From Escherichia coli (GTDB taxonomy: Bacteria; Pseudomonadota; Gammaproteobacteria; Enterobacterales; Enterobacteriaceae), in NCBI RefSeq assembly GCF_029227855.1, contig NZ_CP074356.1: a stretch of 64,000 bases of DNA; one strand, 5' to 3'. Of the stretch, positions 30,803 to 44,699 are shown piece by piece. The position numbers and the translations under genes are program-made. Below the pieces are notes generated by a model. It was not told the origin of the DNA. It did no database searches and saw only the letters and a list, made by a program, of their open reading frames with translations. Positions within the stretch are counted from its first letter, which is position 1. Each line of letters starts with the position of its first letter.

Positions 30803-32102
30803 TCTCCCGCATATTGCCAGCATGGCCTTTAATGAGCCGCTGATGCTTGAACCCGCCTATGCGCGGGTTTTCTTTTGTGCGCTTGCAGGCCAGCTTGGGA
30901 TCAGCCGCCTGACGGATGCGGTGTCCGGCGACAGCCTGACTGCCCAGGAGGCACTCGCGACGCTGGCATTATCCGGTGATGATGACGGACCACGACAGGC
31001 CCGCAGTTATCAGGTCATGAACGGCATCGCCGTGCTGCCGGTGTCCGGCACGCTGGTCAGCCGGACGCGGGCGCTGCAGCCGTACTCGGGGATGACCGGT
31101 TACAACGGCATTATCGCCCGTCTGCAACAGGCTGCCAGCGATCCGATGGTGGACGGCATTCTGCTCGATATGGACACGCCCGGCGGGATGGTGGCGGGGG
31201 CATTTGACTGCGCTGACATCATCGCCCGTGTGCGTGACATAAAACCGGTATGGGCGCTTGCCAACGACATGAACTGCAGTGCAGGTCAGTTGCTTGCCAG
31301 TGCCGCCTCCCGGCGTCTGGTCACGCAGACCGCCCGGACAGGCTCCATCGGCGTCATGATGGCTCACAGTAATTACGGTGCTGCGCTGGAGAAACAGGGT
31401 GTGGAAATCACGCTGATTTACAGCGGCAGCCATAAGGTGGATGGCAACCCCTACAGCCATCTTCCGGATGACGTCCGGGAGACACTGCAGTACCGGATGG
31501 ACGCAACCCGCCAGATGTTTGCGCAGAAGGTGTCGGCATATACCGGCCTGTCCGTGCAGGCTGTGCTGGATACCGAGGCTGCAGTGTACAGCGGTCAGGA
31601 GGCCATTGATGCCGGACTGGCTGATGAACTTGTTAACAGCACCGATGCGATCACCGTCATGCGTGATGCACTGGATGCACGTAAATCCCGTCTCTCAGGA
31701 GGGCGAATGACCAAAGAGACTCAATCAACAACTGTTTCAGCCACTGCTTCGCAGGCTGACGTTACTGACGTGGTGCCAGCGACGGAGGGCGAAAACGCCA
31801 GCGCGGCGCAGCCGGACGTGAACGCGCAGATCACCGCAGCGGTTGCGGCAGAAAACAGCCGCATTATGGGGATCCTCAACTGTGAGGAGGCTCACGGACG
31901 CGAAGAACAGGCGCGCGTTCTGGCAGAAACCCCCGGTATGACCGTGGAAACGGCCCGCCGCATTCTGGCCGCAGCACCACAGAGTGCACAGGCGCGCAGT
32001 GACACTGCGCTGGATCGTCTGATGCAGGGTGCACCGGCACCGCTGGCTGCAGGTAACCCGGCATCTGATGCCGTTAACGATTTGCTGAACACACCAGTGT
32101 AA
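30783..32102 (+). CDS. C: Head maturation protease / scaffold C
   Basis: GTG start giving VTAELRNLPHIASMAFNEPLMLEP..., 439 aa as lambda gpC; track ORF begins further upstream in the same frame. Confidence 0.9.
31707..32102 (+). CDS. Nu3: Scaffolding protein Nu3 (in-frame internal start within C)
   Basis: Internal ATG giving MTKETQSTTVSATASQ..., 131 aa, same frame as C. Confidence 0.6.
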   Translation: MTKETQSTTVSATASQADVTDVVPATEGENASAAQPDVNAQITAAVAAENSRIMGILNCEEAHGREEQARVLAETPGMTVETARRILAAAPQSAQARSDTALDRLMQGAPAPLAAGNPASDAVNDLLNTPV

Positions 32103-32111
32103 GGGATGTTT

Positions 32112-32444
32112 ATGACGAGCAAAGAAACCTTTACCCATTACCAGCCGCTGGGCAACAGTGACCCGGCTCATACCGCAACCGCGCCAGGCGGATTGAGTGC
32201 GAAAGCGCCTGCAATGACCCCGCTGATGCTGGACACCTCCACCCGTAAGCTGGTTGCGTGGGATGGCACCACCGACGGTGCTGCTGTCGGCATTCTTGCT
32301 GTTGCTGCTGACCAGACCAGCACCACGCTGACGTTCTACAAGTCCGGCACGTTCCGTTATGAGGATGTGCTCTGGCCGGAGGCTGCCAGCGACGAGACGA
32401 AAAAACGGACCGCGTTTGCCGGAACGGCAATCAGCATCGTTTAA
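32112..32444 (+). CDS. D: Head decoration protein D
   Basis: [27 protein letters not shown]...; lambda gpD. Confidence 0.9.
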
Positions 32445-32499
32445 CCTTACCCTTCATCACTAAAGGCCGCCTGTGCGGCTTTTTTTACGGGATTTTTTT

Positions 32500-32775
32500 A
32501 TGTCGATGTACACAACCGCCCAGCTGCTGGCGGCAAATGAGCAGAAATTTAAGTTTGATCCGCTGTTTCTGCGTCTCTTTTTCCGTGAGAGCTATCCCTT
32601 CACCACGGAGAAAGTCTATCTCTCACAAATTCCGGGGCTGGTAAACATGGCGCTGTACGTTTCGCCGATTGTTTCCGGTGAGGTTATCCGCTCCCGTGGC
32701 GGCTCCACCTCTGAATTTACGCCGGGATATGTCAAGCCGAAGCACTTAGCATGGCTTTCTGAGGCTTTCGTGTAG
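32500..32775 (+). pseudogene. E: Major capsid protein E, 5' fragment (codons 1-82) disrupted by insertion
   Basis: MSMYTTAQLLAANEQKFKFDPLFLRLFFRESYPF...EFTPGYVKPKH matches lambda gpE, then reads into foreign sequence (LAWLSEAFV, stop at 32775). Confidence 0.85.
32735..32744 (+). repeat. Left copy of 10-bp direct repeat AGCCGAAGCA (putative att core of the inserted element)
   Basis: Identical 10-mer at 43864..43873 exactly where E homology resumes. Confidence 0.6.
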
Positions 32776-32907
32776 CTGCTGGTTTTTACACTTAATCTTT
32801 TGATAATAAAGAATAAGTTTATCTGGCGCTTTCACTGAATTTTCCTCGTTATCTGTGTGTTGCAATCATCTCTGTATTGCAGCTTGTATTGCTTTTTGGG
32901 GCTAAAA

Positions 32908-34143
32908 ATGGCTGGCGAGAACAAACTGAGCGACAAAGCGCTTAAAGGATATCTGGGGAAACCCAGAGAAAAGCAGATCACCATTGCTGATGGAAAGGGG
33001 CTTTCTATTCGTGTGAGTACTAAAGGGGCTGTGAGCTTTGTTTTCTTCTACAGGTTAGCAGGTGGCCGGGCTGCTCCGGTCTGGCTAACGTTGGGTAAAT
33101 ATCCTGATATGTCACTCAAACAGGCAAGGGAAAAGCGCGACGAGTGCCGTGGTTGGTTGGCTGACAAACGTGATCCGCGTATCCAGATTAAGATTCAGGC
33201 TGAAGAACGCTTAAAGCCGGTCACAGTGGAGGATGCACTAAATTACTGGTATGAAAATTACTGTAAGGTGCGTCGTAAAACTCATGCTGTAACGCTTGGC
33301 AGATTTCGAAAGCATATCTTTCCCTATATCGGTCATTTGCCCGTAAATGACACTCACCTATATGAATAGCTGGACTGTTTTGACCGAATTAAACGTAATG
33401 CACCAGTTATGGCGGCGTATGTTTTTTCTGACACTAAATTAGCTCTTCGTTTTTGTCGGGTACGCCAGTACGCGACGTGTGATGCTTTAAAGGATTTGCG
33501 CATGAGTGATGTGGGGCAGATTGCAGGTAAGCGGGATCGGGTTCTGGATGAGGTCGAACTCGGCCAGCTCTGGAAGGCAATTTTTGTCGAGCCTGATTTA
33601 AAACTAATGTCTGAATACACGCGAAAAATGTTTGTGCTTTGTACAGTATTTGGATGTCGAATGAGTGAAGCCCGATTATCAGAATGGAGCGAATGGGATC
33701 TCGAAAGTTGGGTTTGGACTGTGCCAAAAGATCACTCAAAAACTGGTGTTGAAATCGTCAGACCAGTACCTGAAATTCTACGACAGTGGGTAACGGATGT
33801 TCACGAAGAGACAAAACATACTGGTTATGTGCTGGGAAGTCTGCGAATTAGAGAAAGCGTAAGCAAGATTGGGGGGAAAATCGGTAAACGTTTGGGCCAT
33901 GAAAAACAATGGTCACTACACGACCTTAGAAGAACGCTATCTACTCATCTAAGTGATCTCGGTGTTGAATTTTATGTAGTAGAACAACTGTTAGGCCATG
34001 CGCTACCTGGCGTGGCAGGTGTTTACAACCGGAGTAAGTTTATGGCTAAAAAACTGGATGCTCTGGAACTCTGGACTACATATCTCAATAGCATCGCAGC
34101 TGCTGATTCAAAAGTGACAATCCTCAAACAAAAGGCTGGTTAG
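32908..34143 (+). pseudogene. int: P4-type tyrosine integrase interrupted by an in-frame amber codon (TAG at 33367..33369)
   Basis: Track ORFs 32857..33369 and 33409..34143 are in the same frame; P4-int-like N-terminus (..KGLSIRVSTKGAVSFVFFYR..GKYPDMSLKQAREKRDE..); TAG sits where homologues have Trp. Confidence 0.8.
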
Positions 34144-34144
34144 C

Positions 34145-34375
34145 ATGAAAAAAATGGCAATTGTTGATAAAAAGGGTCTGGAGTACATTCCTAACATTGA
34201 CCGAATGATCCGTGAGAAAGAATGTCGGGAGCTAACTACTCTTGCGAACAGCACACGCTGGAAGCTGGAGAAGGAAGGAAAATTTCCTAAGCGGATCAAG
34301 ATTGGTTCCACTGCTGTTGCATATCGTCTTTCAGAAGTGCAGGCATGGATTCGAGGTGAGTGGGAAACAACTTAA
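34145..34375 (+). CDS. alpA: AlpA-family transcriptional regulator / excisionase-like protein
   Basis: 76 aa, HTH (..CRELTTLANSTRWKLEKEGKFPKRIKIGSTAVAYRLSEVQAWI..) directly after int. Confidence 0.75.
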   Translation: MKKMAIVDKKGLEYIPNIDRMIREKECRELTTLANSTRWKLEKEGKFPKRIKIGSTAVAYRLSEVQAWIRGEWETT

Positions 34376-34382
34376 CTATTAG

Positions 34383-35213
34383 GTGGGCATTGTGGCTATA
34401 TTTCATTATACAGATCTTTTTGGTTTGAAAGGTATATTAGACTCTAATTCTTTATGGGCTACAAACATATATTTCTTAAATGATAAAGAGGAGTCTAACC
34501 ATGGATGTGAATGCTTTCGAAATACAATTAAAATAGTTGATGACAATATCATTCCAAAAGATAAGAAAACTATTTTGCTCAAGTCTCTTGACATGTATGA
34601 GAAAGGGAGGTTACAAAAAGAAAAAGGGATTGATAAACATGTTTATAGCATCTCTTTTTGTAAGGAAAACGATAAGTTAAGTCAGTGGAGAGGTTACGGA
34701 AATAAACAGGGTGTTTGCATTGAGTTTGATGCGGATGAACTTGTGAGCTTTTCTCAAAATATTTATTTAAATTGTGTTGCACATGATGTTATATATTCAA
34801 ATAATAACGATATTACTAAGATGAGTAAGGAGTTGGGAGAGTTTTTTTCTTGTAATGGTATTAATATTAAAGAAATGAATGATCATTTTGTAACAATGGT
34901 CTCTACGTATCAATTTATATCTAAATACATCCCATTTTTTAAACATCCTAGTTTTATCGAAGAGAATGAATTTAGATTGGTATTTACTCCGTGGATGCAA
35001 ATGCCAGATGTGCACTTCAGAATAAATAATAATGGGATCATCCCTTATATCATCATTGATAATAAAGATAATAGAAAGTTACCAATTAAAAGCATTACAA
35101 TTGGCCCGACAAACGATTATGATTTCATTGAGGCTGGTATAAAAATGTTCTTGGATTCAAGAGGATTTAGTTCTGTGGAAATTAAATCCTCATCAATTCC
35201 ATTCAGGGGGTAA
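34383..35213 (+). CDS. DUF2971-like protein (276 aa), AT-rich cargo gene
   Basis: N-terminal IFHYTDLFGLKGILDSNSLWATNIYFLNDKEE resembles the DUF2971 signature; very low GC; start could be GTG 34383 or GTG 34391. Confidence 0.6.
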   Translation: MGIVAIFHYTDLFGLKGILDSNSLWATNIYFLNDKEESNHGCECFRNTIKIVDDNIIPKDKKTILLKSLDMYEKGRLQKEKGIDKHVYSISFCKENDKLSQWRGYGNKQGVCIEFDADELVSFSQNIYLNCVAHDVIYSNNNDITKMSKELGEFFSCNGINIKEMNDHFVTMVSTYQFISKYIPFFKHPSFIEENEFRLVFTPWMQMPDVHFRINNNGIIPYIIIDNKDNRKLPIKSITIGPTNDYDFIEAGIKMFLDSRGFSSVEIKSSSIPFRG

Positions 35214-35258
35214 GGATTAACACTTTTAATCTATGATATTATAAAAATGGTGGATAAA

Positions 35259-35278
35259 GGCGACCAGAATTGGTCGCC
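35259..35278. terminator. Bidirectional hairpin between convergent cargo genes
   Basis: AGGCGACCAGAATTGGTCGCC perfect inverted repeat. Confidence 0.4.
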
Positions 35279-35344
35279 AATGTGAGTATATAGTTAGCCT
35301 TAATCAGAATACGAGGTTATCGCCTGATAGGCAATGTGAACAGT

Positions 35345-35701
35345 TCAATATTTAGGTGGTTCAACAAGAGCGTTTATCATTGCTCTCAAATTATCGCGAA
35401 CACTTATCCAAGTCTGTTCTGCTCGTTCTAACTCATCAGTGTACAACTTTAATGTTTTATCTATGCCATATGTGGCTATTAAATTTATAGCTTCTTGTAA
35501 TTTTTCAGGATTATTCCTTCTTGGGGGAGTGAATATACCACGGATTTTTCCGGTAATTAAAGCTTTACGGTGTCTACATAGAATACCTTTACTTCCTGCT
35601 GGACAATTACAAGTCATGATTAGCGAGCCAGAATCGTTTGATACAGTGACTATGTATACATCCAAACTACTGCTACTTGTTGCGAAGAATTCGTATTTCA
35701 T
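35345..35701 (-). CDS. Small SWIM-type zinc-finger protein (118 aa)
   Basis: CNCPAGSKGILCRH (CxC..CxH) motif; AT-rich. Confidence 0.55.
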   Translation of the reverse strand: MKYEFFATSSSSLDVYIVTVSNDSGSLIMTCNCPAGSKGILCRHRKALITGKIRGIFTPPRRNNPEKLQEAINLIATYGIDKTLKLYTDELERAEQTWISVRDNLRAMINALVEPPKY

Positions 35702-35728
35702 GTGTTAGCTCCTTGACTTCAATTATTC

Positions 35729-35860
35729 TTATCCTTTTGGTTCAATACCGCGCCGTAGCAGCTCTTTGCGCCCTAATTCTTTAAGCCAGTTGGCTAGGCT
35801 TATGCCGTCGCTCTGCGCTTCTTTGTCGAATTGCTCTTTTAGCTCTGGAGAAATTCGCAT
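35729..35860 (-). CDS. Small ribbon-helix-helix-like protein (43 aa; longer in-frame form to 36043 possible)
   Basis: MRISPELKEQFDKEAQSDGISLANWLKELGRKELLRRGIEPKG; immediately upstream of the SWIM gene on the same strand. Confidence 0.45.
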   Translation of the reverse strand: MRISPELKEQFDKEAQSDGISLANWLKELGRKELLRRGIEPKG

Positions 35861-36059
35861 TCTGAATTGTGGAGATTGCCCATCACCCTTAGGACTTTTA
35901 TCGCGTTTGATCGTTGACAAGTGACCACCTATTGAATTAGCCTTTTCATTGTTAGGTGACCACCTTAACACGGGGGCACTTAAAAAAGCAAAGCCCGAAG
36001 GTGCTGGGAACACCAACGGGCTTCTAACCACCAACGATAGCAACAGTATCGAGGTAGCT

Positions 36060-36263
36060 ATGAGAAATCATACCACACACCCGCAAGGGCGGGACCCGCA
36101 CAACCTGAATAAATACATCTGGCGTTTTATCGCCTTGAGTACGGCACAACCGCGCATGATTACCATCGAGGCCATCAGCGAACAGGAAGCCCGCCAGCAA
36201 TCCCCAACTGGCTGCGTGATGGTATTCGCCGCCCGTATTCGTCAGGAGGTGTGCCGTGCTTAA
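36060..36263 (+). CDS. Small hypothetical satellite protein (67 aa)
   Basis: ATG with GAGG RBS; first of five tightly coupled small genes preceding the primase. Confidence 0.4.
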   Translation: MRNHTTHPQGRDPHNLNKYIWRFIALSTAQPRMITIEAISEQEARQQSPTGCVMVFAARIRQEVCRA

Positions 36264-36441
36264 AACCTTCCGTGTATTTGCCCGAGCTGTTAACCCACTG
36301 GGCCACACAATTGGTATCACTCAGAACGTGAAGGCTGTTAATGTTCAGACGGCTATTGCTGCGGTGAGAAGCGAATCATCAGAATATGGCTTATCACAAG
36401 TCATTATTTCAGCAGTGTATGAATTAAAAGAGGTGCATTAA
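36256..36441 (+). CDS. Small hypothetical satellite protein (61 aa)
   Basis: Track ORF, overlaps neighbours by a few nt. Confidence 0.4.
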   Translation: MLKTFRVFARAVNPLGHTIGITQNVKAVNVQTAIAAVRSESSEYGLSQVIISAVYELKEVH

Positions 36442-36632
36442 TGCAGGAAATCACATTACACGAAGCCGCTGAACGTGCGCACCAGACAGAAATTATTTGC
36501 CGCCTTCTTGAGGTATACCCGAACAAAATTACAGATGCTGATATATCCGCGCTGGCGAGCCTACTGGCGCGCCTTTCGGGAAGTGTCGCTAGTTTCCTGA
36601 TTGAGGAAGAAAGTAAGCTGGTGGGGGATTAA
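36441..36632 (+). CDS. Small hypothetical satellite protein (63 aa)
   Basis: Track ORF, start overlaps upstream stop. Confidence 0.4.
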   Translation: MQEITLHEAAERAHQTEIICRLLEVYPNKITDADISALASLLARLSGSVASFLIEEESKLVGD

Positions 36633-36854
36633 ATGAATACAGAACGGGAAGTCTTTTTTAAATTGTTAGCATGTGCAGAAAGTTCATTAACTTTAAATAA
36701 TTCAGCAAAAGCAATATTAAATATGTGGCTTGATTGCATAAATGACAATGAAGATGCAAATATTGCTTATGGCCTGTTGTCACTTATTGATGAATCAGCA
36801 GAAAAACTCAATGACGCAATAAATAGTGCCCTGCTATCAAATAAGTCGAGTTAA
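36633..36854 (+). CDS. Small hypothetical satellite protein (73 aa)
   Basis: Track ORF. Confidence 0.4.
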   Translation: MNTEREVFFKLLACAESSLTLNNSAKAILNMWLDCINDNEDANIAYGLLSLIDESAEKLNDAINSALLSNKSS

Positions 36855-36871
36855 GTCGAGGAATAAATAAT

Positions 36872-37171
36872 ATGGAAATGAAAAATTCTGGCTTTATTGC
36901 CAGCGGCCCCGCTCGGCCTGAATTTATGAACGGCGATATTTACCGCGATAAATACGGCGGCACGGTAACGATTAAAGGCGTGGCAGAACGGCGCATCACT
37001 TACCGCCGTGAGGGGTATAGCTATGACTGCGTGATGCCTGTTTATCAGTTCCGGCGTGATTTTTCCCTGGTATATGCCGCACCCCGCAGTAAGCCCATCA
37101 GCAGGGAAAAAGCGCGGGGAAACATCCAGAAAATGAAAAGCATGATTAACGCATTCAGGGGCAAAAAATGA
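36872..37171 (+). CDS. Small hypothetical satellite protein (99 aa)
   Basis: Track ORF, stop overlaps primase start. Confidence 0.45.
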   Translation: MEMKNSGFIASGPARPEFMNGDIYRDKYGGTVTIKGVAERRITYRREGYSYDCVMPVYQFRRDFSLVYAAPRSKPISREKARGNIQKMKSMINAFRGKK

Positions 37172-38919
37172 AACTGGCACCGAACTTAAAAAAACAGCCA
37201 CGCGACAGACTGACAGAGGTAATCATCTTTGCAGGTAGTGATGCGTGGAGCCATGCGAAAGAGTGGCGGGAATGGGCGGGTAAACATATTGCCGCCGACG
37301 ATGTGCCGCCTGTCGTGCTGGCTGATGAGCAACTGAAAAATATCACCGATTACCGGATCATTGATGAAGATCGTCAGTGTGTGCGTGTTTACCGCGCAGG
37401 ACATATCACAGAGCACAGCATGACGCAGATTGTTACGTTACTGGCTGTGGCTGGAGTGAAGACCGTACACGAATACGCGGGGATTACTGACACCAGCCCA
37501 GTGGATTTATCCGAGCAGTTGCCGCGACTCAAAGAGGAATGCGAGCGTGGGGAAAGTCTGGTGCTTAATCTTCCGACGAAGCAAAAGGCGCAACTTTCAC
37601 AGATGGCAGACAGTGAACGTGCACAACTACTTGCCGATCGCTTTGATGGTGTGTGTGTTCATGCAGAAAGTGAAATCGTCCACGTATGGCGCGGCGGGGT
37701 ATGGTGTCCGGTCAGCACAATGGAGCTGAGCCGCGAAATGGTGGCGATCTATTCAGAGCACAGGGCCACGTTCAGCAAACGTGTAATCAATAACGCCGTG
37801 GAAGCGTTAAAAGTTATTGCCGACCCCATGGGGGAGCCGTCCGGTGATTTGCTACCGTTCACTAATGGTGTGCTTAACCTGAAAACGGGGGAATTTTCTC
37901 CGCACTCGCCGGAGCACTGGAGCACCACGCACAATGGCATTGAGTACACGCCACCAGTAGCAGGGGAAAACATCCGCGATAATGCGCCAAATTTCCATAA
38001 ATGGCTTGAACATGCTGCAAGAAAAGACCCGCGCAAGATGATGCGTATATGTGCCGCGTTATACATGATTATGGCGAACCGCTACGACTGGCAGATGTTC
38101 ATTGAGGCCACCGGAGACGGGGGAAGCGGTAAGAGTACATTTACCCATATTGCCACCCTGCTTGCTGGCAAACAGAACACCGTAAGCGCGGAGATGACAT
38201 CACTCGATGATGCAGGAGGGCGCGCGCAGGTTGTCGGGAGTCGTCTTATCGTCCTTGCCGATCAGCCGAAATATACGGGGGAAGGCACGGGCATCAAGAA
38301 AATCACGGGAGGCGATCCCGTTGAAATTAACCCGAAATATGAGAAGCGATTCACGACGATAATAAGGGCGGTGGTACTGGCAACCAATAACGACCCGATG
38401 ATCTTTACCGAACGGGCCGGAGGTGTGTCACGCCGTCGGGTGATTTTCCGGTTCGACAACATTGTAAGGGAGGACGAAAAAGACAAGGAATTACCGGAAA
38501 AGATAGCGGCAGAAATCCCCGTAATTATCCGCCGCTTGCTGGCTAATTTTGCTGACCCTGAAAAGGCACGGGCTTTATTACTGGAACAGCGTGACGGTGA
38601 TGAAGCTCTGGCAATAAAGCAGCAAACGGATCCGGTTGTTGAGCTTTGCGCGGCGCTGGAGTTTCTGGAGGAAGCTCGTGGGCTAATGATGGGCGGTGGT
38701 GGTGACACCGTGAAGTACACGACCAGAAACAGCCTTTACCGTGTCTATATGGCCTTCATGGCATACACAGGAAAGGGGAAATGTTTGAGCGTGAATGAGT
38801 TCGGAAAGGCTATGAGGTCAGCGGCGAAAGTTTACGGATATGAATATATTACGCGAAAAGTTAAGGGAGTCACGCAGACCAACGCAACGACTACTGATGA
38901 TTGCGATGCGTTTTTATAA
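37168..38919 (+). CDS. Primase/replicase (P4 alpha / D5-type), 583 aa
   Basis: Walker A GDGGSGKST in the C-terminal half; large N-terminal domain; followed by iterons. Confidence 0.8.
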   Translation: MKLAPNLKKQPRDRLTEVIIFAGSDAWSHAKEWREWAGKHIAADDVPPVVLADEQLKNITDYRIIDEDRQCVRVYRAGHITEHSMTQIVTLLAVAGVKTVHEYAGITDTSPVDLSEQLPRLKEECERGESLVLNLPTKQKAQLSQMADSERAQLLADRFDGVCVHAESEIVHVWRGGVWCPVSTMELSREMVAIYSEHRATFSKRVINNAVEALKVIADPMGEPSGDLLPFTNGVLNLKTGEFSPHSPEHWSTTHNGIEYTPPVAGENIRDNAPNFHKWLEHAARKDPRKMMRICAALYMIMANRYDWQMFIEATGDGGSGKSTFTHIATLLAGKQNTVSAEMTSLDDAGGRAQVVGSRLIVLADQPKYTGEGTGIKKITGGDPVEINPKYEKRFTTIIRAVVLATNNDPMIFTERAGGVSRRRVIFRFDNIVREDEKDKELPEKIAAEIPVIIRRLLANFADPEKARALLLEQRDGDEALAIKQQTDPVVELCAALEFLEEARGLMMGGGGDTVKYTTRNSLYRVYMAFMAYTGKGKCLSVNEFGKAMRSAAKVYGYEYITRKVKGVTQTNATTTDDCDAFL

Positions 38920-38935
38920 AAAATGGCAATGGTTA

Positions 38936-39170
38936 TCTACCTTGTCTACCTGACTGAAAGAAAATACTTTTATTTCAATGTATTAATGCAGGTAGATAAC
39001 TATTTTTCACTGTCTACCTGTTATCTACCTTATCTACCCATTTTTGTAGACAGGTAAGGAGACGGGTAGAGATGAGGTAGACAGCTATTTGGGGCTGTCT
39101 ACCTCCCTGAAACCCGCGCCATTACTGGCCTGATAACTAATCAGGTAGACAAGGTAGACAAGGTGGTGGT
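38936..39170. repeat. Iteron array (putative satellite replication origin)
   Basis: About 12 copies of (A/G)TCTACC / GGTAGA(C/T) in both orientations within ~235 bp. Confidence 0.7.
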
Positions 39171-39208
39171 GCACAAAAAACTTTTTAAACGAGGGGGTAA
39201 AAATAAAA

Positions 39209-39466
39209 ATGCACACTTCAGGAAAACTGAACAAACATATAAAGCCACATTACCGCGCCCTTGATATGGCTGAACACTGGCTAAGGGTGGCGATTAAGGC
39301 AATAGACCGCAACGCCGGGGAAGGATACGCGAAAGCACATCCCGAACTGATAAGCGCATTCATGACAACGGCGGCTGCAAACTTTGCCACGCTGACCGAA
39401 CGGGAGATTGCTGAAGCGGAGGAAGTGACAACAATCAATATTAAGTCCGGAGAGCAGGCAGCATGA
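39209..39466 (+). CDS. Hypothetical satellite protein (85 aa)
   Basis: Track ORF, translationally coupled to the SSB gene. Confidence 0.45.
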   Translation: MHTSGKLNKHIKPHYRALDMAEHWLRVAIKAIDRNAGEGYAKAHPELISAFMTTAAANFATLTEREIAEAEEVTTINIKSGEQAA

Positions 39467-39912
39467 CGGCGCAAATATCAGTTTACGGGCGGTTGGTGGA
39501 CGACCCGCAGACAAAACAGACCAGCAAGGGCACCCCCATGACGCTGGCGCGTATGGCGGTATCACTGCCCTGCAGTCAGTCGGATGACGGTCTGGCGACG
39601 TTGTGGTTATCTGTCCTGGCGTTTGGCAGACAAGCCGACGCGCTGGCAAAGCATCACAAAGGCGAACTCCTGAGCGTGGCGGGTAACATGCAGATGAGCC
39701 AGTGGACTGGACAGAACGGCGAAACGCGGCAGGGCTGGCAGGTTATCGCAGACAGCGTAATCAGTGCGCGATCGGTGCGACCGGGCGGCAAAAAAGGCCA
39801 ACAGGGGCAGGCTACTGACGCACTGAACAGAGCAAAACAACAGGCAGATCAGCAAGGAAGCCAGCCACCAGAGGGAGATAATGAGCAATGGGGAGATGAT
39901 ATCCCGTTTTAA
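39463..39912 (+). CDS. ssb: Single-stranded DNA-binding protein
   Basis: OB-fold-like N-terminus, Gly/Gln-rich linker and acidic C-terminal tail ending DDIPF. Confidence 0.8.
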   Translation: MTAQISVYGRLVDDPQTKQTSKGTPMTLARMAVSLPCSQSDDGLATLWLSVLAFGRQADALAKHHKGELLSVAGNMQMSQWTGQNGETRQGWQVIADSVISARSVRPGGKKGQQGQATDALNRAKQQADQQGSQPPEGDNEQWGDDIPF

Positions 39913-40128
39913 ATATTGCCAATAAAAAAAGCCGGAAAAAATAAATTTTCCGGCATGCTACATAAATCCCGACCAAAGGGAGTGAAGATATTAACACTAA
40001 TTGTCCGCACTGAAGTTGTCACACCAAAACTTTATACAACATTGCACTCGGTTGCATGTGTTCGCATGACAAATATCGGTGATAGCATATATCCACAATT
40101 ATTTTTAATGAATGCAAAGAGGATGCGT

Positions 40129-41169
40129 ATGGTTGATTTATATTCGCCTACTCAGCTTGTACAGGTAGTTAATGCTGTAGATGTACAAAAACAACTAAAT
40201 GCGTTGTTTACCAGTTTGTTTTTTACTCGCTCGGTAATGTTTGAATCGCGCGATATTATTCTTGATACAATCGACGATCCAAATATCCCAATTGCAGCGT
40301 TTTGTTCTCCTATGGTGGGTAGTAAAGTTTCACGTGACGAAGGGTACGAATCAAAAACAATTCGTCCAGGCTATATGAAGCCGAAAAGCAGCATTGATCC
40401 AAATAAGTTAGCTGTGCGCCCTGCTGGTGTGTCACCTGAGCAATACAATGCTTTTGGGGCGCGTAATATTAAAGTTAAACAGGCGATTGTAAATCAGGCT
40501 AAAGCTATTCGTGCACGTATTGAATGGCTTGCTGTTCAGGCAATCACAACGGGGAAAAATATCATTGAGGGCGATGGTATTGAACGTTATGAGCTGGACT
40601 GGAATATAAAACCACAAAATATCATCACTCAGTCTGGCGGTACTGAGTGGTCAGGTAAGGATAAAGAAACTTTTGATCCAAATGATGATATTGAGAGCTA
40701 CGCAGAATTTAGTGAGGGCGTCACTAATATCATCATTATGGGTGGTAATGTATGGAAGAAATACCGTTCATTCAGAGCGATAAAAGAGGCTTTGGATACC
40801 CGTCGTGGTTCTAATTCCGAACTGGAAACGGCCCTTAAAGACCTTGGTGATTCGGTGAGTTTTAAAGGGTATATGGGCGATGTTGCGATTGTTGTTTACA
40901 GCGGGCGTTATACCGACGAGGACGGAACAGAAAAACATTTCCTTGATCCTGATTTGATGGTGCTTGGCAATACGGCTCTTCAGGGGATTGTCGCCTATGG
41001 CGGTATTCAGGATCCGGAGCTAATCCGAATGGGGCTGACTAAAGCCGAACTTGCACCGAAAAACTATATTGTGCCTGGTGATCCGGCTATTGAATATGTG
41101 CAGACACATTCAGCACCACAGCCAATACCGGCCCGCATCAATCGTTTTGTTACCGTTCGCATTGGCTAA
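40129..41169 (+). CDS. Satellite-encoded major capsid protein, lambda gpE family (346 aa)
   Basis: Collinear similarity to gpE (ITQSGGTEWSGKDKETFDPNDDIESYA..., ..LDTRRGSNSELETALKDLG..GDVAIVVYSGRY..MVLGNT..); start set at MVDLYSPTQ with AGGA RBS. Confidence 0.8.
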   Translation: MVDLYSPTQLVQVVNAVDVQKQLNALFTSLFFTRSVMFESRDIILDTIDDPNIPIAAFCSPMVGSKVSRDEGYESKTIRPGYMKPKSSIDPNKLAVRPAGVSPEQYNAFGARNIKVKQAIVNQAKAIRARIEWLAVQAITTGKNIIEGDGIERYELDWNIKPQNIITQSGGTEWSGKDKETFDPNDDIESYAEFSEGVTNIIIMGGNVWKKYRSFRAIKEALDTRRGSNSELETALKDLGDSVSFKGYMGDVAIVVYSGRYTDEDGTEKHFLDPDLMVLGNTALQGIVAYGGIQDPELIRMGLTKAELAPKNYIVPGDPAIEYVQTHSAPQPIPARINRFVTVRIG

Positions 41170-41178
41170 GGGGGAGCA

Positions 41179-41520
41179 ATGGCTACTCATTACACTGAAC
41201 TCATGGCTGGCACTGAAGCACTGGTGACTACGCTGGGGATATTTTCAGCTAATAAAGGGGTAATTCCTGCATTTACGCCACTGATGCAGGAAGATGCAAC
41301 AGGTGCACTGGTGGTATGGGATGGTTCGAGCGTAGGTAAAGCGGTTTATGTTTCCGCTGTACAAATCGACACCGCGAAAAAAACACAGGCTCAGGTCTAT
41401 AAGACAGGTGTCTTAAATGTTGATGCTCTGAACTGGCCTGAGTCTGTTAAAGAACTGTCAGTAAAGGTTGCAGCGTTTGTTGGCTCAGGTATTTCTGTTC
41501 AGCCGCTGGCTCGTGTGTAA
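41179..41520 (+). CDS. Satellite-encoded head decoration protein, lambda gpD-like (113 aa)
   Basis: Shares THY, TPLM, LVVWDG, YKTG, WPE, AF.G..IS motifs with gpD at matching positions. Confidence 0.7.
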   Translation: MATHYTELMAGTEALVTTLGIFSANKGVIPAFTPLMQEDATGALVVWDGSSVGKAVYVSAVQIDTAKKTQAQVYKTGVLNVDALNWPESVKELSVKVAAFVGSGISVQPLARV

Positions 41521-41531
41521 AGGGGGATACA

Positions 41532-41915
41532 ATGCAGAATGATTACAATGACCTTAAGCCAATTGCCGAAATGATGTACCCGAATCAAGCTGTAGAGGAA
41601 TTAAAAGCTATCGCTGACAAAATGTGTTTAAGCGAGCGCCTTGTTGATATGAATCAGGTGATGGAAATTACAACCCTGAGTCGTCGTACACTGCTAAACC
41701 TTGAGGCTAGTGGAGAGTTCCCGGAGCGTGTGCAGGTTACGGAAGGGCGTAAGGCCTGGTATTTAAGTGAAGTGATCGACTGGATAAATAATATTCCTCG
41801 CGCTTCTGAATATTGCCGCGTACCTGTCCCAAAAAAGCCAGATGCGGCGCTATGCCTCAAGATTGAGCGTGTACGCCGCAATGCACGGGATGGTCGCTAT
41901 AAGCTGATTGGTTGA
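41532..41915 (+). CDS. AlpA/MerR-like winged-HTH protein immediately upstream of the satellite cos
   Basis: 127 aa with HTH (..MNQVMEITTLSRRTLLNLEASGEFPERVQVTEGRKAWYLSEVIDWINN..). Confidence 0.6.
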   Translation: MQNDYNDLKPIAEMMYPNQAVEELKAIADKMCLSERLVDMNQVMEITTLSRRTLLNLEASGEFPERVQVTEGRKAWYLSEVIDWINNIPRASEYCRVPVPKKPDAALCLKIERVRRNARDGRYKLIG

Positions 41916-41939
41916 TGAAATTAGGACCCGCTCTGGCTG

Positions 41940-42145
41940 GCGGGTCCTTTCCGGCGATCCAGAACGTTACGGGGCGTCAGGCGCGCAGTTTTTCGCTATT
42001 TGTGAAAATTTTCCTGTTTAAGGCGTTTCCGTTCTTCTTCGCCGTAACTTAATGTTTTTATTAAAAACACCCCCTAAAAAGAAAGGAAACGACAGGTGCT
42101 AAAAACAGGCTTTTTGGCCTCTGTCGTTTCCTTTCTCTGGTTTTG
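41940..42145 (+). other. Second cos site, belonging to the satellite: altered cohesive-end sequence (GGGCGTCAGGCG at 41972..41983) with lambda-type cosB elements
   Basis: GGGTCCTTTCCGGCGATCC..GTTACG|GGGCGTCAGGCG|CGCAGTTTTTCGCTATTTGTGAAAATTTTCCTGTTTAAGGCGTTTCCGTTCTTCTTCG..GAAAGGAAACGACAGGTG..TCTGTCGTTTCCTTTCTC tracks lambda cos closely. Confidence 0.75.
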
Positions 42146-42481
42146 TTGCCATCCGTCGCGGTCTATCACCAGAAAAAATCTTATCCCTGAGTTGAATCAG
42201 GCCCTATTCAGAAGCGGCCAATAACGCGCCGCTAGCTTCACTTCATAGTTATGGCCTACTTCTGCGCCATTGCAATTGCTTTATGCGCCTTGATGGTGGA
42301 ATATAGAGCAAGCAGTTTGCGAATAACAAAGTTTCATATGTTTTTTGCTGTGTGGCTAGACAACTTTACAGCAGAGTTTTGTGTCAGTTCTTTATGTGTG
42401 CAAGCAAGCTTGAGGGGGAATTACTTCTGGCTGTATCTTTGCTTAAGAACAGCAATAATTTAATCATAAGGAAATGTATAT

Positions 42482-42504
42482 AAGCCTGATTAAATTTCAG
42501 GCTT
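42482..42504 (-). terminator. Hairpin terminator after the TIR gene
   Basis: AAGCCTGA-TTAAATT-TCAGGCTT just 3' of the stop. Confidence 0.4.
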
Positions 42505-42513
42505 ATTGAAATG

Positions 42514-43656
42514 TTAACTCCTTATTAGAGAGTAAATTCCATCCTCTTTAAGGAAGTCTATTACTTCAAAGAATGAGATAAAGAATTCCCAAGAACCAAA
42601 AGCATATGCATGAATTTCGTAAGGTGCAAAATGGAATCTAAATCCATCACTATTTATTGTGAACGAGTCTAAGTTACTATCCATGATACCCGTTGCAAAC
42701 GTACTAATGTCGTCCTCACTTGGTTTTTCACCAGTTTTCTCCCAAAATTCACGAGCTGATTCAGAGATTATTTTTTGTTTTATCTTATTAATCGCTTCTT
42801 GCTCTTTCCCTTCGGTAAATACATCCCATAAACTAAATTTGTATGCGTAGTCATCCTTGGTTATTACGAAATTACTAGTTTCAAAATGACTGTTAGGGTG
42901 TGCTGCTCCCGCACCATACCAATGTACGGAATGAAGGATGCTCATGACATTTTCGTTACAGTATGAGATGTTATAACTTTCATTATAGGAACTAGTGTAA
43001 GTGTGTTTATATTCTTCATCCCAATATGGTGTTCCTGGCCATAGTGATGTGCGTTCAGAAAAAATATGTAAAGCCGCTTTTCCTGAAAAGTAATCACTAA
43101 TGAGTTTTGCTGATTTCGGTAATGTATGGCTTTCAATTCTTGGATATGCTATTTCAATTTCATGCCCTGGGATCTTGTTATATTCTTCCTTGAAAACCTC
43201 GCTGCTAAAGTTAAATGGCCCATAAGTGATACCTTGAGATATTTCAAGTTTTTGTTGCGATGCTGCTAATCTTAAAGATCTAGATAAAATGTCCCAACCA
43301 TCATTTCTCTTAAAATCAATGAATTGGAGCTTGCTTGATATGTAGGCGGGTACTTCGCAATCATCAATAAGTAATGGTATCACGAACACATCATCTGGTT
43401 TGTAATACTTTAGTTTATCAATGGCGTCATTTATTTCGCGGCGAATATAACCATTTTTCTGAGTGCTCACTTTGCTAAGGATAAGGATTATCAAGTTTGA
43501 ATTAGCGAAGTTTTTTTGGATTTCATAATCCCAGTTTACGCCAGCGGGTATATCTTTTACATCCATCCAAGGGGAATATCCTCCACTTTTTAGCCTTTCA
43601 TAGATTTCTTCAGTTATCGTTTCATCTTCTTTTGCATGAGCAAGAAAAATTTTCAT
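42514..43656 (-). CDS. TIR-domain protein with ~250-aa C-terminal domain of unknown function (380 aa); candidate anti-phage defence gene
   Basis: N-terminus MKIFLAHAKEDE...SNLIILILSKVS..YIRREINDAIDK..VIPLLIDD fits the bacterial TIR pattern; AAGGA RBS; AT-rich; between satellite cos and right att repeat. Confidence 0.75.
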   Translation of the reverse strand: MKIFLAHAKEDETITEEIYERLKSGGYSPWMDVKDIPAGVNWDYEIQKNFANSNLIILILSKVSTQKNGYIRREINDAIDKLKYYKPDDVFVIPLLIDDCEVPAYISSKLQFIDFKRNDGWDILSRSLRLAASQQKLEISQGITYGPFNFSSEVFKEEYNKIPGHEIEIAYPRIESHTLPKSAKLISDYFSGKAALHIFSERTSLWPGTPYWDEEYKHTYTSSYNESYNISYCNENVMSILHSVHWYGAGAAHPNSHFETSNFVITKDDYAYKFSLWDVFTEGKEQEAINKIKQKIISESAREFWEKTGEKPSEDDISTFATGIMDSNLDSFTINSDGFRFHFAPYEIHAYAFGSWEFFISFFEVIDFLKEDGIYSLIRS

Positions 43657-43863
43657 TGAATATTCCTTTATAATTTAACTAATTAAGTGAAGGAGGCTTT
43701 ACTTGGCTGTGTTAGAAAAAATTCGGTTTGTTTTTTGTACGATGCCAAGAAGGCTTTTCCCTAACCATGTATTGCAGCATGTATTGCTACGTAATTCTGC
43801 ACCCTCTCATTTATAAAATAAATCTCTGTTAAATCAAGTATCTTTTTTCTATTTGACTCATGT

Positions 43864-43873
43864 AGCCGAAGCA
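43864..43873 (+). repeat. Right copy of 10-bp direct repeat AGCCGAAGCA
   Basis: Identical to 32735..32744; E reading frame resumes immediately after. Confidence 0.6.
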
Positions 43874-44699
43874 TGAGGTGAATCCGCAGATGACCCTGCG
43901 TCGCCTGCCGGATGAAGATCCGCAGAATCTGGCGGACCCGGCTTACCGCCGCCGTCGCATCATTATGCAGAACATGCGTGACGAAGAGCTGGCCATTGCC
44001 CAGGTCGAAGAGATGCAGGCAGTTTCTGCCGTGCTTAAGGGCAAATACACCATGACCGGTGAAGCCTTCGATCCGGTTGAGGTGGATATGGGCCGCAGTG
44101 AGGCGAATAACATCACGCAGTCCGGCGGCACGGAGTGGAGCAAGCGTGACAAGTCCACGTATGACCCGACCGACGATATCGAAGCCTACGCGCTGAACGC
44201 CAGCGGAGTGGTGAATATCATCGTGTTTGATCCGAAAGGCTGGGCGCTGTTCCGTTCCTTCAAAGCCGTCAAGGAGAAGCTGGATACTCGTCGCGGCTCT
44301 CATTCCGAGCTGGAGACAGCGGTGAAAGACCTGGGCAAAGCGGTGTCCTACAAGGGGATGTATGGCGATGTGGCCATCGTCGTGTATTCCGGACAGTACG
44401 TGGAAAACGGCGTCAAAAAGAACTTCCTGCCGGACAACACGATGGTGCTGGGGAACACTCAGGCACGCGGTCTGCGCACCTATGGCTGCATTCAGGATGC
44501 GGACGCACAGCGCGAAGGCATTAACTCCTCTGCCCGTTACCCGAAAAACTGGGTGACCACCGGCGATCCGGCGCGTGAGTTCACCATGATTCAGTCAGCA
44601 CCGCTGATGCTGCTGGCTGACCCTGATGAGTTCGTGTCCGTACAACTGGCGCAATCGTGGCCCTTCGGGGCCATTTTCTCTCTGTGGAGGAGTCCATGA
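43866..44699 (+). pseudogene. E: Major capsid protein E, 3' fragment (codons ~80-341) plus 15-codon readthrough extension
   Basis: PKHEVNPQMTLRRLPDEDPQNLADPAYRRRRIIMQN... matches lambda gpE to ..DEFVSVQLA; the lambda stop position reads CAA here, so the frame runs to TGA at 44697..44699. Confidence 0.85.

Follow-up and report, generated by a model that had tools for sequence, protein, structure and literature searches.

A DUF2971 gene with a predicted ADP-ribosyltransferase fold in a swappable cargo slot of a satellite embedded in an Escherichia coli prophage

What kind of gene lies at positions 34383-35213 of the Escherichia coli contig NZ_CP074356.1 (assembly GCF_029227855.1), and what could it do for the cells that carry it? 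The window analyzed here is a stretch of 64,000 nucleotides, in which this AT-rich gene is found on a phage satellite integrated into the major capsid gene E of a lambdoid prophage, its helper. A first-pass annotation, made from the sequence alone, had described it as a candidate defence or anti-helper gene. According to its sequence and its predicted structure, the encoded protein is a member of the DUF2971 family with an ADP-ribosyltransferase fold and the corresponding catalytic motifs. By comparison of related satellites, the gene is an independent accessory cassette in a swappable slot. Family, fold, and position together make it a credible candidate for an anti-phage defence gene, although not a new kind of system.

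The open reading frame (ORF) of 276 amino acids with a GTG start and the N-terminus quoted in the first-pass annotation is present in the ORF list on the plus strand, and its numbering is used for all residues given below. Membership in DUF2971, which had been proposed from an N-terminal signature, was confirmed by a Pfam match (PF11185, independent E-value 3.2e-11) that spans residues 101-199 and all model positions (1-89 of 89). The signature itself lies outside of this 89-position model, yet it is conserved in the family. The PF11185 match was obtained for each of the 54 aligned homologs, across which the residues H8, T10, N33, D34, E37, L99, W102, R103, Y105, E194, E196, and R198 are invariant.

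An alignment-based AlphaFold model of the protein is confident and compact, with a predicted local distance difference test score (pLDDT) of 91.7 and a predicted template modeling score (pTM) of 0.88. In a Foldseek search with this model, entries for DarT ranked first (probability 0.77-0.98, template modeling (TM) score 0.34-0.46), and DarT was the top structural match by two methods (PDB 7omv, 7yk3, 7omu, 8baq), the similarity being remote. When compared to AFDB50, the whole fold of 273 residues resembles that of other DUF2971 proteins with TM scores of 0.7-0.97. All of the top matches were DUF2971 proteins, and at least 1,642 clusters matched the model at E≤0.001. The core fold of ADP-ribosyltransferases is present in the predicted model, as judged by the criterion for the H-Y-E clade, to which DUF2971 has been assigned, with similarity to DarT, AbiGi, and Tox-ART-HYD1 (PMC12522546). 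As far as can be judged from predicted structures, DUF2971 is a divergent branch of the H-Y-E ADP-ribosyltransferases. Its closest relatives with solved structures are DarT and Tpt1/KptA, which act on nucleic acids.

At the level of sequence profiles these relationships are hardly visible. A profile search of the PDB sequences gave no meaningful match (best E=0.18, an unrelated protein), a search of NCBIfam gave nothing above noise, and no DarT family was found among the Pfam matches at E≤10 or the PADLOC matches at E≤1. The weak Pfam leads were Tox-ART-HYD1 (E=1.7) and AbiGi, which was matched by three of the 54 homologs (best E=0.014). The sole PADLOC match of the protein itself was the candidate system PDC-S31 (E=1.3e-4, 19.9 bits), which is weak and partial as it covers residues 70-146.

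The catalytic-type motifs are invariant in homologs across phyla (Table 1). Motif I follows the published scheme [R/H]x[D/T] (PMC12522546). Its histidine has been described as poorly conserved over DUF2971 as a whole (PMC12522546), whereas in the subfamily of the window protein H8 is invariant. The placement of the ExE motif as motif III agrees with the published assignment (PMC12522546). In motif II of the clade, a tyrosine or an S-T-S sequence contacts nicotinamide and ribose. For this tyrosine there are two candidates: Y105 in LSQWRGY, which is invariant, and Y88, which is not and belongs to a Y-S-I-S sequence on the predicted strand 88-93. Based on conservation, Y105 may be the motif II tyrosine. 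The conserved elements show column entropies of 0.3-1.8 bits, compared to about 3.1 bits in the two hypervariable regions, which are predicted to be helical inserts.

Table 1. Coordinates of the DUF2971 gene, its sequence elements and its surroundings in the window.
Feature	Position	Strand	Basis and remarks
Left attachment (att) core copy, 10-bp AGCCGAAGCA	32735..32744	+	Inside the split prophage capsid gene E
Satellite tyrosine integrase (int), clade targeting prophage late genes	32908..34143	+	ORF list, annotation
alpA, AlpA-family regulator/excisionase	34145..34375	+	ORF list, annotation; PF05930 in orthologous loci
Variable cargo slot 1, "dynamic zone"	34364..36107		Begins 12 nt ahead of the alpA stop and extends to the start of the conserved icd-like/replication block
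Shine-Dalgarno-like AGGTGGG	34381..34387	+	Read from sequence; 4 bases upstream of GTG 34392, 5 nt past the alpA stop codon
DUF2971 coding sequence, 273 amino acids (probable start)	34392..35213	+	Pfam match, RefSeq start and product name, N-termini of close homologs
His8-Tyr9-Thr10, predicted ADP-ribosyltransferase motif I	34404..34412	+	Predicted strand beta-1 (5-11); H8 and T10 invariant, Y9 at least 90%
Asn33-Asp34-x-x-Glu37, invariant "LNDxxE" loop past strand beta-2	34479..34493	+	Alignment columns
Hypervariable helical insert 1, residues 38-87	34494..34643	+	Mean entropy 3.11 bits; model helices 34-51, 59-77
Leu99-Ser-Gln-Trp102-Arg103-Gly-Tyr105	34677..34697	+	Most conserved segment; lowest mean column entropy, 0.31 bits
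Hypervariable region 2, residues 117-185, with helical insert 2	34731..34937	+	3.0-3.1 bits; helices 144-157, 168-185
Glu194-Asn-Glu196-Phe-Arg198, predicted ExE motif III	34962..34976	+	Beginning of strand beta-5 (strand 196-203); both Glu invariant
GC-rich hairpin, 8-bp stem GGCGACCA/TGGTCGCC, loop GAAT	35259..35278		Between the convergent DUF2971 and SWIM genes
SWIM zinc-finger protein, 118 amino acids, phrog_13130	35345..35701	-	Convergent with the DUF2971 gene
Arc-like ribbon-helix-helix gene (YlcI/YnfO/HicB-like)	35729..35923	-	phrog_228 "Arc-like repressor", E=1.2e-6; conserved gene on the right of the slot
Right att core copy, AGCCGAAGCA	43864..43873	+	Repeat search

The comparison across satellites substantiated the assumption of the first-pass annotation that the gene occupies a variable position. 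Homology with the sibling satellites L002, L003, and L004 (98-99%) ends at 34363/34364 and returns at 36108 (L002, L003) or at 35256 (L004). The right edge of the cassette toward the latter adjoins the hairpin at 35259-35278. The left breakpoint is shared by three different slot alleles, which means that each cassette supplies the last codons of alpA. Among near-identical satellites, at least four alternative contents of slot 1 were found: DUF2971 and SWIM (allele A; window, L001, L020, L021), a membrane protein of 178 amino acids on the minus strand (allele B; L002, L015-L017), a TIR protein of 291 amino acids matching the PADLOC candidate PDC-S35 with E=7e-67 (allele C; L003, L018), and a membrane protein of 265 amino acids together with SWIM (allele D; L004, L019). 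The int-alpA module, counted as present if covered over at least 80% of its length, was detected in 174 of 5,426 complete E. coli genomes, nearly all at a nucleotide identity of at least 95%. The DUF2971 gene is carried by 35 of these 174 genomes, in all cases with at least 96% identity.

The membrane-protein cassettes of slot 1 are encoded at L002 8083-8619(-), with 178 amino acids, and at L004 10501-11298(+) and L007 7212-7976(+), with about 255-265 amino acids (phrog_2611). Neither PADLOC nor Pfam gave an assignment for them, and by their position they are defence candidates. The cargo ORF of allele D overlaps the end of alpA by 10 nucleotides (L004 10501 versus 10510), which suggests translational coupling.

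A second variable slot with a low GC content of 0.376 is located at 41916-43877, before the right end of the satellite. In the window it holds a TIR protein of 380 amino acids (42514-43656, minus strand) with an N-terminal TIR domain, for which the best of the PADLOC TIR models reached E=1.6e-17. In sibling satellites it holds a different DUF2971 protein (PDC-S31, E=7.6e-26), an AbiJ-like protein, or a hypothetical protein of 311 amino acids.

The translation start of the DUF2971 gene is probably GTG 34392, giving 273 instead of 276 amino acids, because of the spacing to the AGGTGGG sequence, the start in the RefSeq record (WP_016247984.1, "DUF2971 domain-containing protein"), and the N-termini of close homologs. 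Close enterobacterial homologs in the alignment open with M-x-I/V-F/Y/C-H-Y-T; distant ones have longer N-termini. As had been noted before, the gene follows the integrase module directly and is very low in GC. It is the first gene downstream of int-alpA on the same strand, starting 7-16 nucleotides past the alpA stop at 34375 (ORF start versus GTG 34392), and its GC content is 0.307 (0.288 at third codon positions), compared to 0.454 for int, 0.437 for alpA, 0.438 for the whole satellite, and about 0.57 for the flanking prophage.

A scan for consensus promoters and terminators stayed at background level, and no terminator-like hairpin was called on the plus strand between int and the DUF2971 stop codon. 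Due to the 16-nucleotide gap after alpA and the lack of such a hairpin, the gene probably belongs to the int-alpA transcript. Since it is co-oriented with the late operon of the helper, read-through from this operon upon induction is also possible, by analogy to the published concept (PMC10111431). Downstream of the gene, the hairpin at 35259-35278, which was missed by the consensus terminator scan, is probably a terminator. It folds with -23.9 kcal/mol (z=-2.69), and none of 200 shuffled sequences folded equally well.

Between E. coli alleles, the ratio of nonsynonymous to synonymous substitution rates (dN/dS) of the DUF2971 gene is 0.11-0.41, compared to 0.03-0.12 for int, with a higher dS for DUF2971. 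All pairwise values are below 1, which indicates purifying selection that is weaker than on int. In the Enterobacter satellites L007 and L008, int is 91% and alpA 91-92% identical to the window, but DUF2971 only 43-47%. In the K. aerogenes satellite L005, the respective values are 54%, 50%, and 59%. This mismatch implies that the cassette moves between satellite lineages and diverges fast. The conserved core, the hypervariable inserts, and the dN/dS values taken together mark the gene, as far as sequence comparison goes, as functional and evolving like a conflict gene. Its reading frame is intact in 32 of the 35 genomes. An IS3-family insertion near nucleotide 221 of the gene was found in NZ_CM136148.1 and NZ_CM192142.1. 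An IS1414 insertion in the region, with the SWIM annotation lost, was observed in NZ_OW968288.1, NZ_OW968124.1, and NZ_OW967975.1.

Immediately downstream of int-alpA, homologs with 34-60% identity are present in Klebsiella and Enterobacter satellites inserted in other late genes. Among the IMG/VR loci with at least 40% identity, int-alpA lies immediately upstream in 14 of 14, and likewise in L005 and L007-L010. Homologs with 37-38% identity were found between the portal gene gpQ and the replication gene gpA of P2-like prophages, an interval known as the old/tin defence hotspot (PMC9122126). The table of P2 loci by Rousset et al. names DUF2971 18 times, but the family does not belong to the systems tested there (PMC9122126). 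Furthermore, 547 plasmid records contain DUF2971 homologs. The neighbours of the homolog on an IncI plasmid encode an "abortive infection family protein" and a DUF3800 protein, the homolog of an Agrobacterium plasmid adjoins or overlaps an annotated QatD gene, and in E. kobei a homolog is located near a PF14355 Abi_C gene. In tblastn searches of the plasmid collection, no Lactococcus record was among the matches listed or in the top-ten organism counts. In phage genome records homologs are scarce (6 of 50,697). The recurrence of the family in defence islands, which the first-pass annotation had put forward, agrees with its defence-associated positions in slot 2 of the sibling satellites, in the P2 interval, and beside the abortive infection and QatD genes of plasmids.

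The genes around the cassette were compared across genera, and no conserved partner gene of DUF2971 was found among the compared loci. The absence of a dedicated partner is the reason why the gene is regarded as an independent cassette. The SWIM protein was rejected as a dedicated partner or antitoxin, since it is paired with unrelated cargo in two satellites (L004, L019), while the orthologs of Klebsiella and Enterobacter have no such neighbour. The Arc-like gene was rejected as an antitoxin, as it belongs to the backbone of satellites without the DUF2971 gene. It has minus-strand equivalents in L002, L003, L004, and L098, unannotated small minus-strand ORFs lie at this place in L005, L007, and L011, and in sibling satellites it is named HicB or YlcI/YnfO. 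Over 35729-35923 (L001 15331-15597), RefSeq annotates a plus-strand pseudogene ("hypothetical protein, internal stop"), beneath which lies the apparently intact minus-strand Arc-like gene. A membrane protein of 254 amino acids that precedes DUF2971 in Enterobacter is 71% identical to the stand-alone gene of allele D and was therefore considered a separate cassette. No DarG macrodomain gene is adjacent to the DUF2971 gene, and the annotation of the satellite contains neither a macrodomain nor a reversing enzyme of the NADAR type.

The host element is, by its sequence features, a known helper-embedded phage-inducible chromosomal island (PICI) within the lambdoid major capsid gene E. It spans 32735-43873 (11,139 bp with both core copies counted), and the core sequence AGCCGAAGCA occurs twice in the window, where 0.10 matches are expected. 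Paired TGTATTGC arm-type repeats at 32873/32885 and 43768/43780 adjoin both ends and agree with the published attP motif. After int and alpA come the variable zone and the block from the icd-like gene to primase and ssb, followed by genes for a homolog of capsid E and a decoration protein, a helix-turn-helix gene, and the second variable zone. The presence of int and alpA, the insertion in and co-orientation with a late gene, the TGTATTGC repeats, and four ordered zones, here int-alpA, the variable zone, icd-primase-ssb, and capsid-decoration, are all as described for helper-embedded PICIs. The genes int, alpA, and DUF2971 are co-oriented with the terminase-portal-protease-D-E' genes of the helper. 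A search against Rfam at a permissive threshold gave no RNA match in 32000-44500, so a P4-type immunity RNA is absent from the zone.

At codon 154 of the integrase, an in-frame amber codon (TGG to TAG, 33367-33369) was found; strain LR-50 has an intact copy. If the amber codon is not suppressed, the satellite cannot excise and the helper gene E remains split, which would cripple both elements. At 39916-41520, the satellite encodes a lambda-E-type major capsid protein of its own (RefSeq start about 40129) and a decoration protein, while E of the helper is interrupted; such genes are a trait of the published "late zone" of helper-embedded PICIs. In K. aerogenes YD-K10 (CP142846.1; NZ_CP142848.1; L005, L006/L098), a related satellite with a 59%-identical DUF2971 protein is present both integrated and as a circular record of 10,541 bp. 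This record, "plasmid pYD-K10_2", is most simply explained as excised satellite caught in the assembly.

As to its function, we lean slightly towards the gene being a single-gene, infection-activated ADP-ribosyltransferase that provides the lysogen with an abortive-infection-type defence. From family, fold, and position we infer the activity, the use of nicotinamide adenine dinucleotide (NAD+), the target, the trigger, and the defence phenotype as follows. In the lysogen, low-level expression would yield a protein that stays inactive until infection by a non-helper phage provides an activating cue, with the two hypervariable helical inserts as the likely recognition surfaces for this cue. Using NAD+, the conserved core would then transfer ADP-ribose to nucleic acid of the phage or the host, or to the transcription apparatus. 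As a result, the phage could not express its genes or replicate, which would protect the clonal population harbouring satellite and helper together. Such a course would parallel those of Aristaios (phage transcription), DarT (single-stranded DNA), and CmdT (mRNA). Aristaios, encoded by the Lactococcus plasmid pUCCL641_199, is a validated single-gene antiphage system consisting of a DUF2971 protein of 316 amino acids (Grafakou et al., 2024; PMC11381338). It confers phage resistance of the abortive-infection type (PMC11381338) and interferes with phage transcription (PMC13064643).

Several points weigh against a defence function. PADLOC gave no match to DarT, CmdT, or other validated defence models, but only the weak and partial one to PDC-S31. 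The defence role of the window protein and its enterobacterial homologs is deduced from sequence and analogy, and the likeness to Aristaios relies on the published description of that system. A toxic ADP-ribosyltransferase without an antitoxin would need a control mechanism, and none was identified here. In IMG/VR prophage contigs, none of 10 non-structural neighbours of distant homologs was matched by PADLOC, so that the link to known defence genes rests on individual examples. Moreover, the gene is disrupted in three of the 35 genomes, twice by an IS3-family insertion and once by truncation, which fits a costly gene as well as a dispensable one.

Among the alternatives, the enzyme could serve the life cycle of the satellite or target the helper. 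Expressed by late read-through, it would modify DNA, RNA, or proteins of the helper or the host in favour of satellite replication or packaging. This fits the co-orientation of int-alpA-DUF2971 with the helper late genes downstream of the split capsid gene, the proposal of a helper-driven late transcription of the satellite (PMC10111431), and the finding that the clade with at least 40% identity occurs only after int-alpA of satellites (14 of 14 IMG/VR loci; L005, L007-L010). However, only 20% of the otherwise near-identical satellites carry the gene, where it is interchangeable with TIR and membrane proteins, and its relatives in P2 prophages and on conjugative plasmids lack such a relationship to a helper. 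As a core life-cycle function would not be so dispensable, we regard this role as unlikely. A related and similarly doubtful idea is an antitoxin-less, DarT-like enzyme acting on nucleic acids and wired in cis to the helper late operon through read-through from the split capsid gene. By ADP-ribosylation of bases or RNA, it would serve as a timed late-phase weapon that marks or blocks the genomes or transcripts of helper or competitors, instead of a classical abortive-infection sensor on stand-by, with the inserts setting its target specificity. Of the two roles named by the first-pass annotation, the candidacy for defence is retained, based on the family, the cargo slot, the positions of homologs, and Aristaios, whereas the anti-helper role gained no specific support.

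That the protein is the toxin of an addiction module, which stabilizes the satellite or the composite prophage and whose unrecognised antitoxin is either a small RNA or one of the SWIM and Arc-like proteins, appears improbable. DarT, the closest fold, is indeed a toxin that is paired with an antitoxin, the DUF2971 gene is always followed by a small gene in convergent orientation, and copies disrupted by insertion sequences exist in some genomes. Against this reading, SWIM also accompanies other cargo and is missing beside the orthologs in other genera, the Arc-like gene is present in satellites without DUF2971, neither a macrodomain nor a NADAR-type enzyme is annotated in the satellite, and no Rfam RNA was found in 32000-44500. 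In addition, Aristaios acts as a single gene. There is likewise little probability that the enzyme acts in counter-defence or host takeover by ADP-ribosylating a host protein, such as RNA polymerase or a defence protein, to aid establishment in new hosts. Phage T4 modifies host proteins in this way by Alt, ModA, and ModB, and the ExE motif present in the window protein is typical of arginine-specific protein ADP-ribosyltransferases. The fold and the motifs are intact, and the carriers are transmissible elements (satellites, plasmids, prophages). On the other hand, the alternatives in the slots are defence-like (TIR PDC-S35; AbiJ-like and PDC-S31 in slot 2), the P2 homologs occupy the old/tin exclusion hotspot, the only tested family member defends, and homologs are rare in phage genome records. 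A functionless passenger, inactive or decaying in a recombination-prone zone, is hardly to be expected. The three disrupted copies, one pairwise dN/dS of up to 0.41, and the already inactivated integrase of the window satellite would agree with decay, but not the 32 intact frames, the dN/dS values all below 1, the complete set of catalytic-motif residues with their invariance across phyla, and the confident, compact model.

An abortive-infection-type defence thus remains the reading we lean to, and it would build on published knowledge: satellites of this type, defence genes carried by satellites, and DUF2971 as a defence family that resembles ADP-ribosyltransferases have all been described. 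The sequence comparison adds that a DUF2971 clade occupies the slot next to alpA in helper-embedded satellites, and it provides the exact boundaries of the cassette and the set of slot alleles. DUF2971 has been reported in 5,981 species (PMC12522546). For this very large family with Aristaios as its one tested member, an E. coli representative in a swappable slot would offer a tractable system, with which the substrate of a stand-alone DarT-like enzyme, its safety without an antitoxin, and the arming of lysogens by embedded satellites against competing phages could be addressed. Furthermore, the interval that alpA and the Arc-like gene enclose in these satellites is a place to seek more defence genes. 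Two uncharacterised membrane-protein cassettes share this slot.

Compared to known ADP-ribosyltransferase systems, the window protein shares with DarT the H-Y-E-type core, DarT being the best structural match of the model. DarT ADP-ribosylates thymidine on single-stranded DNA (PMC12522546), and DarTG is an anti-phage system that modifies the DNA of invading phages, as cited in PMC11381338. In contrast to DarT, the window protein has two large helical inserts, a C-terminal extension, and an ExE motif instead of the single catalytic Glu. An identity as DarTG was rejected, as there is neither a match to the DarT sequence models nor a DarG neighbour. CmdT of CmdTAC is an antiphage ADP-ribosyltransferase which acts on mRNA and blocks phage gene expression (PMC11618068). 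It differs in requiring an antitoxin and a chaperone, neither of which is present at the window locus, and its PADLOC model was not matched.

The PDC-S31 protein of slot 2 (e.g., WP_001117802.1 in L002 and L004) belongs to the same Pfam family and occupies a variable slot of the same satellite family, but it is only 22% identical over 169 residues and is encoded in the other slot on the opposite strand. Its N-terminal region is unrelated and has no evident counterpart of the His-Tyr-Thr motif. As the PDC-S31 model scores E=1.3e-4 for the window protein and E=7.6e-26 for its slot-2 sibling, the former is not clearly a member of PDC-S31.

The satellite corresponds to the helper-embedded PICIs of site group E:Phage_cap_E (Tommasini, Mageeney and Williams, 2023; PMC10111431), in whose "dynamic (Bro) zone" the gene is located. 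According to that work, Bro-network proteins and immunity RNAs make up most of this zone, and defence cargo is not discussed there (PMC10111431). The zone in the window differs by its ADP-ribosyltransferase-like gene and the absence of an Rfam RNA. Immune systems encoded by PICIs are known (Fillol-Salom et al., 2022, as cited in PMC11364771). With the hotspots of P2 and P4 (Rousset et al., 2022; PMC9122126), slot 1 has in common a fixed position, conserved flanks, and interchangeable small cassettes of low GC content; it differs by its location between alpA and the Arc-like gene, which is not called a defence hotspot in the literature found. Finally, Aristaios comes from a plasmid of a Gram-positive species and not from an enterobacterial satellite, and it is longer (316 versus 273 amino acids), but it resembles the window protein in being a single DUF2971 gene product of about 300 amino acids with an AlphaFold-predicted ADP-ribosyltransferase-like fold, carried by a mobile element without an antitoxin.

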